Below, one piece after another: positions 16,258-60,538 of a stretch of 64,000 nt of DNA; position 1 is the first letter of the stretch, and each line of letters begins with the position of its first letter. The DNA is from Candidatus Binataceae bacterium. GTDB lineage: Bacteria; Desulfobacterota; Binatia; Binatales; Binataceae. The notes under the pieces were generated by a model. It saw only the letters and a list, made by a program, of their open reading frames with translations, was not told the DNA's origin and did no database searches. Where the stretch lies: NCBI GenBank assembly GCA_050736695.1, contig JBOHWH010000170.1, positions 1,973 through 65,972 on the forward strand, written 5' to 3'. A program made the position numbers and the translations under genes.

Positions 16258-16335
16258 GTCCCCGTCGTCTAGCTCGGCCTAGGACACCGGCCTTTCACGT
16301 CGGTAACACGGGTTCAAATCCCGTCGGGGACGCCA
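16258..16335 (+). tRNA. tRNA-Glu (anticodon UUC), CCA encoded
   Basis: GTCCCCGTCGTCTAGC...ACCGGCCTTTCACGTCGGT...GGGTTCAAATCCCGTCGGGGACGCCA; near-identical architecture to E. coli tRNA-Glu; anticodon loop CTTTCAC. Confidence 0.85.
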
Positions 16336-16657: not shown

Positions 16658-16908
16658 ACGTTCCCGATCTCGGATTTTGAGGGACCTCAACCTCAACGAT
16701 CATGGCTTGAGGTGAGCTCGGAATATCCGGGCTCACCTTCTCATAGTGGCGCATAATCTTCCCGGCCGTTTTTCATTGTCGCTTTGCACTTTCGTGCATT
16801 TCCGAAGCGGCGCCTTTGACTAACCGCATGCGCGTGGCATATTGAGCGGTCCGGTCAGTCCTGAATCCGGGTTACGCCGAACCGATAAAAAACCGAGGAA
16901 AAAACCTG

Positions 16909-17481
16909 ATGCCGCGAATTCCATTAGTCGAGCCCGAAAGCGCGCCACAAGAAATCAAAGACCTCTACGCGAAGTTTCCCGGCGGCGACGGGCAGCTCTT
17001 GAATGTAGTCAAGATGTTCGGGAACAATCGAAACTTCCTCGAAGGATTTTTGCACATCCTGAACGGTCTCTACTCAAATGCGAAACTTCCGGCGCGATAC
17101 CGCGAGCTCGCCTACCTTCGGGCCTCGCAGCTCAACTCGTGTCACTATTGAATTCCCACCCACGTGATGCTCGGTCGGAGCATCGGATTTACTCCCGAAC
17201 AAATTGCCGCGATGCCGCAGGCGGACGTCAGCCCGCTGTTCGACGAAACCGATCGCATGGTGCTGAAATACTCGGAGGTCCTGACTCGCGAAAATCGGGT
17301 GGATGACGACCTCTTCAACCGGCTGGCCGCGCGTTTCTCTCGCGAGGAGCTGGTCGAGCTCTGCTTCACGGTTGGGATGGCGGCGCTGGTGAATCGGGTT
17401 CACGCGACGTTTCGGACCGATCTCGACGCTTCCACCCGCGACATCGTCGGCGACGCGCCGTACTGTCCGATCGGGCGCTGA
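16909..17481 (+). CDS. AhpD-like / carboxymuconolactone-decarboxylase-family putative selenoprotein (in-frame UGA at 17149-17151 read as Sec; motif CHYU-IPTH)
   Basis: ORFs 16909-17151 and 17164-17481 are in the same frame; TGA sits exactly where the second Cys of the AhpD catalytic C-x-x-C-x-x-x-H motif is expected; hairpin 14 nt downstream. Confidence 0.7.
17166..17184 (+). promoter_or_regulatory. putative bacterial SECIS-like hairpin GATGCTC-GGTCG-GAGCATC
   Basis: 7-bp perfect stem, 5-nt loop, begins 14 nt after the in-frame UGA. Confidence 0.5.
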
Positions 17482-21539: not shown

Positions 21540-23528
21540 TTAATGCTGATAGGCGCCCAGATCGACCGGGTTCCTCGGACGCGGCGTCCCCATGATGTCC
21601 AGCGCCGGCACGCCGTACGCCGTCGTACCGGCACCGACGGCAGGACTGGAAGCTTGCGGGATGAAGCTGATCGCCGGATTCACCAGCATCGGATTCTTGC
21701 CGGAGATCTCGGCGGTCAGCGTATCACCCGAGCTGGAGATCGAGGTCGACGAGTTGCCGGTAGTGCCGTTGAAAGTCAGGTTGTTCGCGAACACGTTGGC
21801 CGAGCCGCCGCCGTCGAGGATTGCGGTGTTCGCACCGTTCAAGCTGGGTGCGGCAACCAGGATGTTGTTAGCCACCGCGACTCCGTTCGAGTTCTCCAGC
21901 GAGACCTCGCCGCGCCAGGTGAAGCTGTTCGTGGTTTGAGCGTAATCGTCCCAGCAGGTGTTGTTGAGAATCGTCACCGCGGTTGAATGGAACACCTTGA
22001 CGCATGCGCCCGTGTTGCCGTAGCCGACGTTGTTCTCGACCAGTATCGGCGAGCTGTAGCTGCTGTCGATACCGCTGTCCACGATGATGCCGTTGCCGTC
22101 GGTACCGCCCTGCGGATTTTCGTTCGCGTACGAGAAGTTGTTCGCAATCGTGATGTGGTAGCCCGCGGCGCCATCCGCTGCCAACGGCTCGTACACGGAG
22201 ATCCCTGAGCCTGAGCCGGTCCAGGCGCCGGCGTTGCCCGAGGTAATGTTGTTTTCGATATCGATGTAGTCGGCGTTGTTGAGCTGGATCCCGCTGGCGC
22301 TCGCGCCCGTGACTTCGTTGCCGGTCACCCTAAAATGCGCTCCTCCGTTCGACGTAACGATTCCCCACATGCCGCCGGTCACCTCGAGGTTCTCGACCGC
22401 GATGTAGGACTGCGCGTTGATGTTGACGCCCATCGCGGAGGTGCCGCTCATGCTGATGGTGGCGCCCAGAGGAGTCGAGGCGGCCAGCGTGATCCATCCG
22501 TTCGCGTTGCCCGAGTTGTTGAAGGTGACGCCCGTCGTAAAGGTGCCGCTGGCGCATACGGTGCTGCCAGGCTGGGCCGCATTAACGCCTTCCTGCAGAG
22601 TCTTGTAGGGGTGCGCTGACGACGTGCCCGGACCTGAATCGCTTCCGGCAGGCGACACGAATATCGTGCACGCAATCGCGGACGTAGGACTCGCGGTTGG
22701 TGTCGCCGTGACGGTGGGAGTCGCGGTTTTGGTAGGCGTTGCAGTCGCCGTTGGCGTCGCGGTTGTGGTGATGGTTGGCGTTGCTGTCGGCGTCGTGGTT
22801 GCGGTTACGGTGGCAGTCGCCGTTGCGTTCACGGTTGGCGTCGAAGTGGCGGTTGCGGTTAGAGTCGGAGTAGGCCTGACCGTCGCGGTGACAGTTGGCG
22901 TGATCGTCGTTGTCGCGGTCGCGGAAAATGTCGGCGTTGGAGCTTGCGTGGGAGTCGCGGTCACGGTCGGCGTGAACCCTGGGGTCGGAGTAACGGTCGG
23001 TGTCGGAGAGTGGCGCTTGCGAGGCCCGAGATTTCTGATTCTGCCGATCAGTGGTACCGAAATGATCGGATTGCTCGCATCGCTCCCAATTGTCAGCATT
23101 CCCTGATGGGTCCCCGACGGATCCGACGTGAAGCTGATCATGACAACGCATCGTGTGCCCGGCTGCAATTCTCCAACGCAGGTGTTCGACGCAACGAACT
23201 CAGCGCTCGAGGATTGGATCGTGCTGATGCTGATTGGTTTATTCTGGCGGTGATTTTTCTTGTTGATGAGGGTGACTTTTCCGGATTTGGTTTCGACGAC
23301 GGTTCCGAGCTGCATGATCTCGGTCGCCGCCGCTGCCGTGCGCGGCGTAACCTGGAGAGCCGCCGGTTCGGGGCTGGGCATCGGCAGAGCGTCCCGAGTG
23401 ATCCCGGAGGAGGGACTGCCGGGTTCATTCTGATACGCATACGACTCGGTCGCCGCTCCCAGTGCGACTATAGTCGCCACGATTCCGGCAACAACTGCGA
23501 AGAGACTTCGATTGATCGACAAAAACAT
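21540..23528 (-). CDS. secreted right-handed parallel beta-helix (pectate-lyase-fold) protein with Thr/Pro-rich linker
   Basis: Signal peptide; N-terminal beta-sandwich-like domain; ~110-aa TPTxT linker; C-terminal repeats NN(I/V)xxGN..G.G(I/V) typical of PbH1 beta-helix. Confidence 0.75.
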   Translation of the reverse strand: MFLSINRSLFAVVAGIVATIVALGAATESYAYQNEPGSPSSGITRDALPMPSPEPAALQVTPRTAAAATEIMQLGTVVETKSGKVTLINKKNHRQNKPISISTIQSSSAEFVASNTCVGELQPGTRCVVMISFTSDPSGTHQGMLTIGSDASNPIISVPLIGRIRNLGPRKRHSPTPTVTPTPGFTPTVTATPTQAPTPTFSATATTTITPTVTATVRPTPTLTATATSTPTVNATATATVTATTTPTATPTITTTATPTATATPTKTATPTVTATPTASPTSAIACTIFVSPAGSDSGPGTSSAHPYKTLQEGVNAAQPGSTVCASGTFTTGVTFNNSGNANGWITLAASTPLGATISMSGTSAMGVNINAQSYIAVENLEVTGGMWGIVTSNGGAHFRVTGNEVTGASASGIQLNNADYIDIENNITSGNAGAWTGSGSGISVYEPLAADGAAGYHITIANNFSYANENPQGGTDGNGIIVDSGIDSSYSSPILVENNVGYGNTGACVKVFHSTAVTILNNTCWDDYAQTTNSFTWRGEVSLENSNGVAVANNILVAAPSLNGANTAILDGGGSANVFANNLTFNGTTGNSSTSISSSGDTLTAEISGKNPMLVNPAISFIPQASSPAVGAGTTAYGVPALDIMGTPRPRNPVDLGAYQH
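22676..23006 (-). repeat. low-complexity coding repeat (TPT/TAT linker) inside beta-helix protein gene
   Basis: Degenerate tandem repeats at DNA level (GGCGTCGCGGTTG / GGTGGCGGTTG variants). Confidence 0.6.
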
Positions 23529-59480: not shown

Positions 59481-59590
59481 GAGCCGCCAGTCGCGCTAGC
59501 ACACTCCTGCGATGAGTCACGCGCCTTTTCTCTCGCGCACGCGGCTTGACGGACGGGGCGCTATCGGTCTGCAATGGAACGAGCGCCGCT

Positions 59591-60076
59591 ATGAACGAAA
59601 CTCCGGAAAAGACCCGGGCCCTCGAGCTCTGGAACGAAGGCGTGCAGCATCATATTCTGCGCGACCTTGACGGCGCGATCCGCCTCTACACGAAATCGAT
59701 CGAGGCGTTTCCGACCGCGGAGGCATACACGTTTCGCGGATGGGCGTATCAGGGGATGGGCCGGCTCGACGATGCGATCGCGGAGTGTAAGCGCGCGATC
59801 GCGGTCGATCCTTCCTTCGGTAATCCCTACAACGATATCGGCGCCTACCTGATGGCCAAGGGCGAGCTCGACGAGGCGATCGGATGGCTCGAACAGGCCA
59901 AACTTGCGCCGCGTTACGAGCCGCGTCATTTCCCGCATATGAATCTTGGCCGCGTGTACGAAGCCAAGGGAATGATCGCGCGCGCGATCGAGGAATTCGA
60001 GCAGGCACTGAAATTCGCGCCGGCCGATTCGACCTGCGCGGCGATGCTCCAGCGGCTGCGCGCGATGCTGAATTGA
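59591..60076 (+). CDS. TPR-repeat protein (TadD-like?)
   Basis: Three or more TPR units (AEAYTFRGWAYQGMGRLDDAIAECKRAIAVDP...). Confidence 0.65.
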   Translation: MNETPEKTRALELWNEGVQHHILRDLDGAIRLYTKSIEAFPTAEAYTFRGWAYQGMGRLDDAIAECKRAIAVDPSFGNPYNDIGAYLMAKGELDEAIGWLEQAKLAPRYEPRHFPHMNLGRVYEAKGMIARAIEEFEQALKFAPADSTCAAMLQRLRAMLN

Positions 60077-60091
60077 TCCAGGAGGCCTGCG

Positions 60092-60538
60092 ATGCTCAAG
60101 GTTGCCGACCGCGCGCCCGAGTTCACACTCCCAGCCCACGACGGCAGGACGATCTCAAGCGCCGATCTGCGCGGACGCAAGGTGCTCTTATGGTTTTATC
60201 CGGCCGCGAGCACTCCCGGATGCACCACTGAAGGACGCGGCTTTCGCGACCATCAGAGTTACTATGATGAAAACGAAATTCAAATCCTGGGCGTCAGCTT
60301 CGACCCTACCGAAGCCAATGCGGCGTTCGCGCGCAATAATGGATTCAAATTTCCGCTGCTGAGCGATTGCACCCGGAAAACCGCGCTCGCTTACTGCGCA
60401 TGCGCCGATCTGAAATCGACAACGCCGGAACGGATGAGCTTTCTAATCGACGAAGACGGACGGATCGCTAAAATCTACGATCACGTCGATCCGCGTGACC
60501 ATCCGGCGCGCGTACTCGCCGAGCTGCTGGACGTGTGA
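60092..60538 (+). CDS. bcp: peroxiredoxin Bcp (thiol peroxidase, AhpC/TSA family)
   Basis: FYPAASTPGCTTE active-site motif. Confidence 0.85.
   Translation: MLKVADRAPEFTLPAHDGRTISSADLRGRKVLLWFYPAASTPGCTTEGRGFRDHQSYYDENEIQILGVSFDPTEANAAFARNNGFKFPLLSDCTRKTALAYCACADLKSTTPERMSFLIDEDGRIAKIYDHVDPRDHPARVLAELLDV

Follow-up and report, generated by a model that had tools for sequence, protein, structure and literature searches.

Does an in-frame TGA end a protein, or does it encode a residue within one? This question is raised by two consecutive open reading frames (ORFs), at 16909-17151 and 17164-17481, on the forward strand of a 64,000-nucleotide stretch of a Candidatus Binataceae bacterium genome (contig JBOHWH010000170.1), hereafter the window. 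An earlier note on this DNA had taken the two ORFs for a single AhpD-like selenoprotein gene, with selenocysteine (Sec) in place of the catalytic Cys. Our analysis agrees: in all probability this is a single Sec-encoding gene, whose codon 81, a UGA, is read as Sec. The putative selenoprotein is supported by the retention of the TGA in 68 of 68 related loci, the presence of Cys at this position in more distant homologues, a constrained hairpin directly downstream, and the linkage of the gene to Sec-pathway (sel) genes in relatives.

The start of the second ORF is offset by 255 nt, i.e., 85 codons, from that of the first, and hence the two share a frame. Translated on the plus strand, 16909-17481 yields 190 sense codons in one frame; one TGA lies within it (17149-17151) and a second closes it (17479-17481). 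The motif around the in-frame TGA reads S-C-H-Y-TGA-I-P-T-H. For the profile searches of the joined protein, Cys was placed at the TGA codon. The Pfam carboxymuconolactone decarboxylase (CMD) profile, PF02627, matches residues 43-107, running across residue 81 (E 3.7e-15, 56.1 bits, cut-off 23), and TIGR00778 (ahpD_dom, the AhpD core domain) also passes its threshold (41.6 bits, cut-off 27.8). With both profiles above their cut-offs and the motif C78-x-x-U81-x-x-x-H85 in place, the protein belongs to the AhpD/CMD superfamily. The coding score is positive for each half (+0.23 bits per codon for the first and +0.40 for the second, compared to about -0.6 for the shifted frames); the mean for the genes of this genome is 0.37. 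The product is most likely a protein of roughly 21 kDa with the AhpD/CMD fold, encoded by one gene, and the earlier note was right to join the two ORFs into a complete protein.

We then scanned one genome per GTDB species, which gave 78 loci, of which 68, including the window and the locus L079, hold the motif. These orthologs range from about 41 to 99% identity and come from metagenome-assembled genomes (MAGs) labelled Binatia, Gammaproteobacteria, Myxococcota and Chloroflexota. The labels need caution: L009, L024, L044 and L047 are environmental MAGs titled 'Klebsiella pneumoniae' or 'Klebsiella sp.' and are almost certainly mislabelled. First, all 68 loci have TGA as the motif codon, and neither TAA nor TAG stands there in any of them, whereas the terminal stops of the same genes use all three codons (TGA 38, TAA 15, TAG 12). 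Second, the 64 complete loci all contain full-length orthologs that start about 80 codons 5' of the TGA with a conserved N-terminus, M-x-R-I-P-L-V-E-P-E. Third, the signature E66...C78-H-Y-U81-x-P-T-H85 is invariant among the orthologs. Conserved coding sequence thus lies on both sides of the TGA, in one frame, as is expected of a selenoprotein gene. The outcome that the earlier note had named as fatal to its proposal, namely orthologs that all end at this position and exist as two genes, is not what we see: the frame is one and conserved, and so is its N-terminal half.

These observations bear directly on the simplest alternative, that the TGA is a true stop and that the 80-aa N-terminal and 104-aa C-terminal pieces are two small genes, or a split gene whose products assemble after translation. 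Public gene calls and the NCBI annotation do show it this way: P0121, a 100% match of 80 aa named 'carboxymuconolactone decarboxylase family protein [Candidatus Binataceae bacterium]', is followed by a 104-aa ORF. Queried with the joined protein, the database gave more than 115 clusters; almost all of these are 104-aa proteins of 63-99% identity that correspond to the portion 3' of the TGA and to nothing before it. With the first 80 residues as query, it likewise gave more than 115 clusters, 80-81 aa in length. The two sets of fragments indicate that the split is universal in public gene calls, in line with the earlier remark that standard ORF callers divide this gene. The lack of visible Sec machinery in the 64-kb window also fits a true stop. 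Set against this are the invariance of the internal stop beside the variable terminal ones, and the conservation as protein of the five codons (I/V-P-T-H-V, with the motif His) that separate the TGA from the presumed restart. Further, no Shine-Dalgarno-like motif precedes the GTG/ATG at 17164-17169 that gene callers take as the start of the 104-aa 'fragment', and a cut at the TGA would split the CxxC redox motif of a single domain. Along with the covariation in the hairpin and the linkage of orthologs to selA, selB and tRNA-Sec, both described below, this makes a true stop very unlikely.

The position of the TGA within the domain is equally telling. In distant homologues (L069, L070 and L072-L076, from Alphaproteobacteria and Actinobacteria, at 30-36% identity), CxxCxxxH stands where the window protein has CxxUxxxH, with Cys at the TGA position, and the same holds for the solved structures 2gmy (CAFCVDMH) and 2ijc (CAYCVNMH). 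The claim that 17149-17151 replaces the second Cys of the AhpD-type CxxCxxxH motif is thereby borne out, and the locus has the Cys/Sec pair, with Cys homologues aligned to the TGA, by which selenoproteins are recognized. The earlier note had also proposed an alignment of orthologs to look for a Cys codon at this site; Cys is there in the distant homologues, whereas the orthologs proper have TGA in 68/68 cases and never Cys. Within the subfamily, i.e., at 41% identity or more in the 68 loci, we found no Cys form.

The perfect 7-bp hairpin reported by the earlier note, GATGCTC (17166-17172), GGTCG (17173-17177) and GAGCATC (17178-17184), begins 14 nt after the TGA and is indeed present. We aligned the region from the TGA to +45 across the 68 loci, without gaps, so that the helix joins positions 18-24 with 30-36. 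It pairs in 99.3% of cells, with compensatory two-sided changes at 3/7 pairs (A-U to G-C, G-C to C-G and C-G to U-A), while sliding the 3' arm as a control reduces pairing to only 17-46%. RNAalifold returns the same helix plus a U-G pair. The minimum free energy (MFE) ranges from -8.0 to -17.5 kcal/mol across 68/68 loci, with about -11 to -11.9 for the window-type hairpin. The strongest single result on the RNA element comes from the silent sites. Where sequences agree in the majority residue, their codon entropy amounts to 1-2 bits over codons 61-85 and again from codon 93 on, and is about 0 for most of codons 86-92. There, GTG (51/51), CTC (63/64), GGT (63/63), CGG (40/40) and GTC (53/53) are nearly frozen and Ser91 is restricted to AGC/AGT; codon 87 (Met) has no synonyms. 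Since this low-entropy block coincides with the hairpin, a nucleotide-level constraint overlaps the coding constraint.

The published model of the bacterial Sec insertion sequence (SECIS) element comprises a loop of 3-9 nt with a G in its first two positions (usually G[G/U]), a stem of 4-16 bp, a distance of 16-37 nt between UGA and loop, and an MFE at or below -7.5 kcal/mol (PMC13188914). The window hairpin has a 5-nt loop, GGUCG, a stem of 7-8 bp, a spacing of 21 nt (17152-17172; no indels in the 68 loci) and an MFE within the limit, and so agrees with the model in all four respects; in a few orthologs the loop is 3 nt and the stem 9-10 bp long. In the SECIS of Escherichia coli fdhF, the apical loop contains GGUC with an essential G-U. 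Like this element and the bacterial consensus, the window hairpin lies inside the coding sequence just 3' of the UGA and its loop starts with GGU; unlike them, it has no evident bulged U, and its recognition by SelB is a prediction. On the strength of covariation, silent-site constraint and agreement with the model, the hairpin behaves as a constrained RNA element of the kind expected for a bacterial SECIS, as had been proposed.

The genomic setting of the orthologs provides a further line of evidence. In nine loci (L020, L022, L023, L024, L032, L035, L042, L044 and L045), tblastn and Pfam searches place selA and selB directly beside the ortholog, with selA identified by PF03841 (E 5e-157) and selB by GTP_EFTU, the SelB beta-barrel and the SelB winged helix. 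ARAGORN, run on 60 related loci, found 11 tRNAs; seven of them, all at most 10 kb away from the ortholog, are tRNA-SeC (UCA), and 7/9 of the selA/selB-linked loci have a tRNA-Sec within this distance. In L020, the order is ahpD-like, selA, selB, tRNA-Sec, all on one strand (L020:4027-8149). The ortholog is co-directional with selA-selB in L020 and L022, and divergent from them with a gap of about 100 nt in the other seven (e.g., L045:828-4986). All nine are MAGs labelled Gammaproteobacteria or Pseudomonadota. No selD was found in the flanks of the related loci, the nine sel-linked ones included, and our literature search found no paper tying Binatia/Binatota to Sec or a selenoprotein.

This linkage also bears on whether the UGA might be read through as some residue other than Sec: SelB might employ a tRNA(Sec)-like tRNA(Cys), which would give Cys, or near-cognate suppression might give Trp or Cys. 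Some bacteria are known to have such tRNA(Cys) species, sequence comparison does not distinguish which amino acid is inserted, and for the Binatia lineage the Sec machinery itself is surmised. As against this, the genes adjoining the orthologs in relatives are canonical: selA, which encodes the Sec synthase, selB, and a tRNA gene assigned by ARAGORN to tRNA-SeC (anticodon UCA). The UGA sits at the catalytic Cys of a redox motif, where Sec/Cys exchange classically takes place, and if Cys were inserted, TGC or TGT would be expected in some of the 68 species; it occurs in none (0/68). We therefore hold insertion of another residue to be very unlikely, and Sec to be most likely the residue encoded. 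For the source organism, the conserved TGA and the SECIS-like hairpin suggest that it has the Sec trait.

A last group of alternatives treats the TGA as an artifact: a pseudogene, a sequencing error, or a code in which TGA is sense (codes 4 or 25). Two observations seem to invite it. One is P0003, the only apparently full-length protein in the database, with W at the Sec position. The other is a Binatia chromosome (OZ243979.1), where at L067:10001-10267 only about the last 90 codons are left (FDATDRLVLRY...CPLGH) next to unrelated upstream sequence, and which looks like a truncated remnant or a rearrangement. The DNA behind P0003 (L079:73-660, JGI contig Ga0672834_0378309), however, has TGA at this codon; the locus translated under code 11 gives no match to the deposited protein, and a TGA-sense code was apparently used to translate the contig. 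The same TGA recurs in 68 independent assemblies, and both halves of the gene are under coding constraint. In the window, TGA is the stop of 11/21 long genes and of this gene itself, and the G+C content is 62%, which together exclude a TGA-sense code. This group of explanations is effectively refuted.

Several results weigh against the reading as a Sec codon and need to be set beside it. No tRNA-Sec was detected in the 64-kb window, and tblastn found no selA, selB or selD there (for selD, with a hand-entered query), in agreement with the earlier note on these three genes; likewise, none of these genes nor a tRNA-Sec occurs in the flanks of the Binatia-labelled loci. The earlier suggestion that the hairpin be sought with a covariance model did not bear fruit: no Rfam SECIS family matches 17100-17260 at E up to 10, and a scan of the whole window at gathering scores yields only the two tRNAs and no SECIS family. 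A single-sequence fold of 71 nt is not unusual compared to shuffled sequences (z = 0.19), and across the window 28 out of 1678 TGA triplets (1.7%) precede a perfect hairpin that has a SECIS-like geometry and 7 bp or more. By itself the hairpin is thus weak evidence; it is the comparison with 67 other loci that lifts the case far above chance. Further, no selenoprotein-specific NCBIfam model reaches its cut-off, and a 2026 review grades the AhpD-like and CMD-like families as 'predicted with high confidence', i.e., predicted and not verified. Finally, the structure model (built on P0003) is poor, with a predicted local distance difference test score (pLDDT) of 62 and below 50 in the active-site region; it is unfit for active-site geometry.

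The decoding and chemistry that follow from a Sec codon can be sketched from known systems. At the UGA, SelB carrying Sec-tRNA(Sec) would bind the hairpin through its GGUCG loop, Sec would be inserted instead of termination, and translation would run on to the stop at 17479-17481. In Mycobacterium tuberculosis AhpD, the second Cys of CxxC is the nucleophile and is activated through a His/Glu/water relay. The predicted Sec occupies this second position; a His follows at +4, and 12 residues ahead of the first Cys there is an invariant Glu, Glu66, which may be the equivalent of the proton-relay Glu of the M. tuberculosis enzyme. Given these three features, a selenolate at position 81 may be the attacking nucleophile, by analogy with AhpD-type CxxC proteins, with Cys78 resolving the intermediate as a selenenylsulfide, a specific mechanism that we favor with some reserve. 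This would make the protein a thiol/selenol oxidoreductase of the peroxidase-related kind. An additional Cys near the C-terminus might serve as a metal ligand or as another resolving residue: Cys186 (CPIGR) is nearly invariant among the Binatia-type sequences, and a Cys is conserved in this region in most clades (CPIGR, ACPLP, CLLP or TCPL), while L054-L060 and the Chloroflexota-type sequences lack it. The coordinates of these residues and of the other features of the locus are collected in Table 1. Upstream of the gene, a consensus scan gave one promoter match against 0.6 expected, which is weak evidence for a putative promoter.

Table 1. Features of the predicted selenoprotein locus (window coordinates).
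Feature	Coordinates	Strand	Basis and remarks
Sigma-70-like promoter match (TTGACT, 16 nt, CATATT with TG)	16816-16843	+	Consensus scan; about 65 nt 5' of start codon
Shine-Dalgarno-like GAGGA	16895-16899	+	Read from sequence; 9 nt before ATG 16909
Complete coding sequence, predicted AhpD/CMD-fold selenoprotein, 190 residues + TGA stop	16909-17481	+	Single frame, Pfam, coding scores, orthologs
Glu66 (GAG)	17104-17106	+	12 residues before first Cys of motif; invariant, 64/64 orthologs
Cys78 (TGT), first residue of C-x-x-U, presumed resolving residue	17140-17142	+	TGC/TGT in 64/64 orthologs
In-frame TGA, predicted Sec codon, residue 81	17149-17151	+	TGA in 68/68 loci; Cys/Sec aligned in homologues
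His85 (CAC) of C-x-x-U-x-x-x-H	17161-17163	+	Invariant in 64/64 orthologs
SECIS-like hairpin	17165-17185	+	Seven perfect pairs, 17166-17172/17178-17184, and U-G closing pair 17165/17185; loop GGUCG 17173-17177
Cys186, C-terminal CPIGR motif	17464-17466	+	Extra conserved cysteine

How does this gene relate to described selenoproteins? Families of CxxU proteins from this superfamily have been on record since 2005. The Sargasso Sea survey listed 27 sequences of an 'AhpD-like protein' and four of a 'CMD domain-containing protein' (PMC1088965), the Global Ocean Sampling data gave 299 sequences of 'AhpD-like 1' and 70 of 'AhpD-like 2' (PMC2398784), AhpD-like and CMD-like CxxU families are listed again in PMC13188914, and the AhpD/CMD-type families form an entry in BSepDB. 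For comparison, sequences of AhpD-like 1 and of the Sargasso CMD-domain protein were taken from the supplements of these papers. The CMD-like selenoprotein of Zhang, Fomenko and Gladyshev (2005; PMC1088965) shares with the window protein the PF02627 domain, the CxxU motif and a length of about 190 aa, and the Sec of the Sargasso sequence AACY01102305 (...LNQCAYuTSHNVTLGRALGF...) aligns with the window TGA (...LNSCHYuIPTHVMLGRSIGF...). The two are only 25% identical over 158 residues (E 1e-15), and the window clade has marks of its own: an invariant CHYU[IVL]PTH, an LVNRVHATF motif and usually the C-terminal Cys. This low identity and the distinct signature point to a subfamily separate from the Sargasso CMD-like proteins, though within one broad family with them. 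AhpD-like 1 and 2 (COG2128/TIGR01926; NF041238 'CFYUT'; PMC1088965, PMC2398784) have in common with it the superfamily, the CxxU motif and a SECIS directly downstream; the AhpD-like 1 sequence that we compared shows marginal likeness to the window protein (E 2e-4 over 38 residues).

The curated models place it similarly. The window protein reaches 44.3 bits with TIGR01926, compared to a cut-off of 81.8 (all 22 members tested match this model, the best at an E of only 8.4e-19), and 17.8 bits with NF041238, compared to 175. The best-scoring NCBIfam model is NF053654, 'YciW-related (seleno)protein', which includes Sec forms and matches 22/22 members tested over residues 1-155; at 63.1 bits, far from the equivalog cut-off of 310, the window protein is not a member. 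Cys-type proteins of known structure are alike in fold family by sequence: 2gmy (Atu0492), 2ijc, 2o4d (PA0269), 6e8l (AhpD), the 'peroxidase-related' proteins 2pfx and 3c1l, and the debrominase Bmp8 (6ohi). A profile compared to the solved structures gives E-values down to 4.5e-19, with CxxCxxxH aligned to CxxUxxxH; these structures have Cys where the window protein has UGA, and their identity to it is at most about 30%. Effectively, the protein would be a new subfamily, or member, of the already known AhpD-like and CMD-like CxxU kind of selenoprotein.

The genes beside the window copy (those for an FAD oxidoreductase, a short-chain dehydrogenase/reductase, a PanE-like protein, a JAB protein, a dihydroorotate dehydrogenase-like protein and an outer-membrane protein) are not conserved beside the orthologs. 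Neighbor assignments across the loci, made by reading the sequences only, gave FadB-like enoyl-CoA hydratase/3-hydroxyacyl-CoA dehydrogenases as the commonest (19 loci), followed by luciferase-like monooxygenases (12), Baeyer-Villiger-type monooxygenases (10) and acyl-CoA dehydrogenases (8), a pattern suggestive of a link to oxidative lipid or hydrocarbon metabolism. The FadB-type gene encodes about 700 aa and is found no more than 4 kb from the ortholog in these 19 loci, which represent several phyla (L056 (74-2161), L011, L015, L018, L021, L026, L030, L036, L037, L038, L043, L046, L049, L053, L054, L055, L058, L060 and L062) and is not next to the window copy; in L056 some 30-45 nt separate its end from the start of the predicted selenoprotein gene. 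About 570 nt 5' of the window gene is a tRNA-Glu (UUC) at 16258-16335 (+). The NCBI contig CDHSXZ010000111.1 holds an identical copy of the gene and, if colinear, starts at this tRNA, which would put an assembly break there.

A codon-score scan of the window for other TGA-split genes returned only this gene and false positives. At 59546-60538 (+), a tetratricopeptide-repeat gene ends at the TGA 60074-60076 and is followed by a separate in-frame gene, which codes for a Cys-type Bcp-like peroxiredoxin (…YPAASTPGCTTE…). The candidate at 22624-23253 is antisense to a real gene at 21540-23528 (-), whose 662-aa product combines a signal-peptide-like N-terminus, a long Thr/Pro/Ala-rich repeat linker (24- and 36-nt tandem repeats at 22720-22871) and a C-terminal half that is beta-helix-like; the antisense frame gives rise to a spurious V/G/A-rich ORF at 22624-23106. 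A scan for Cys/Sec pairs over all loci was dominated by spurious GC-rich frames, with nothing usable beyond the gene described here.

The principle at work here is textbook, namely Sec in place of the nucleophilic Cys of CxxC with a SECIS just downstream, in a kind of family described between 2005 and 2008, and the finding will be unsurprising to a selenoprotein specialist. Its practical value lies in annotation: the subfamily is present in at least 68 species-level genomes from several phyla, and protein collections show it almost only as fragments of 80 and 104 aa. A dedicated model would mend hundreds of records and would add Binatia-type bacteria of soil and groundwater to the users of selenoproteins. 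With its nearly invariant SECIS and its adjacency to selA, selB and tRNA-Sec, the family may also be a handy one for studying SelB-SECIS recognition outside the model organisms. More tentatively, the absence of any Cys form above about 40% identity in 68 species raises the possibility, to which we give rather little credence, that the CHYU[IVL]PTH clade is an obligately Sec-containing subfamily outside every curated model. If so, and given that in one lineage the gene sits beside selA, selB and tRNA-Sec, it could have a role in the homeostasis of selenium or of the Sec pathway; alternatively, rather than a generic peroxidase-related protein, it could be the very selenoprotein that accounts for the retention of the Sec trait in those genomes.

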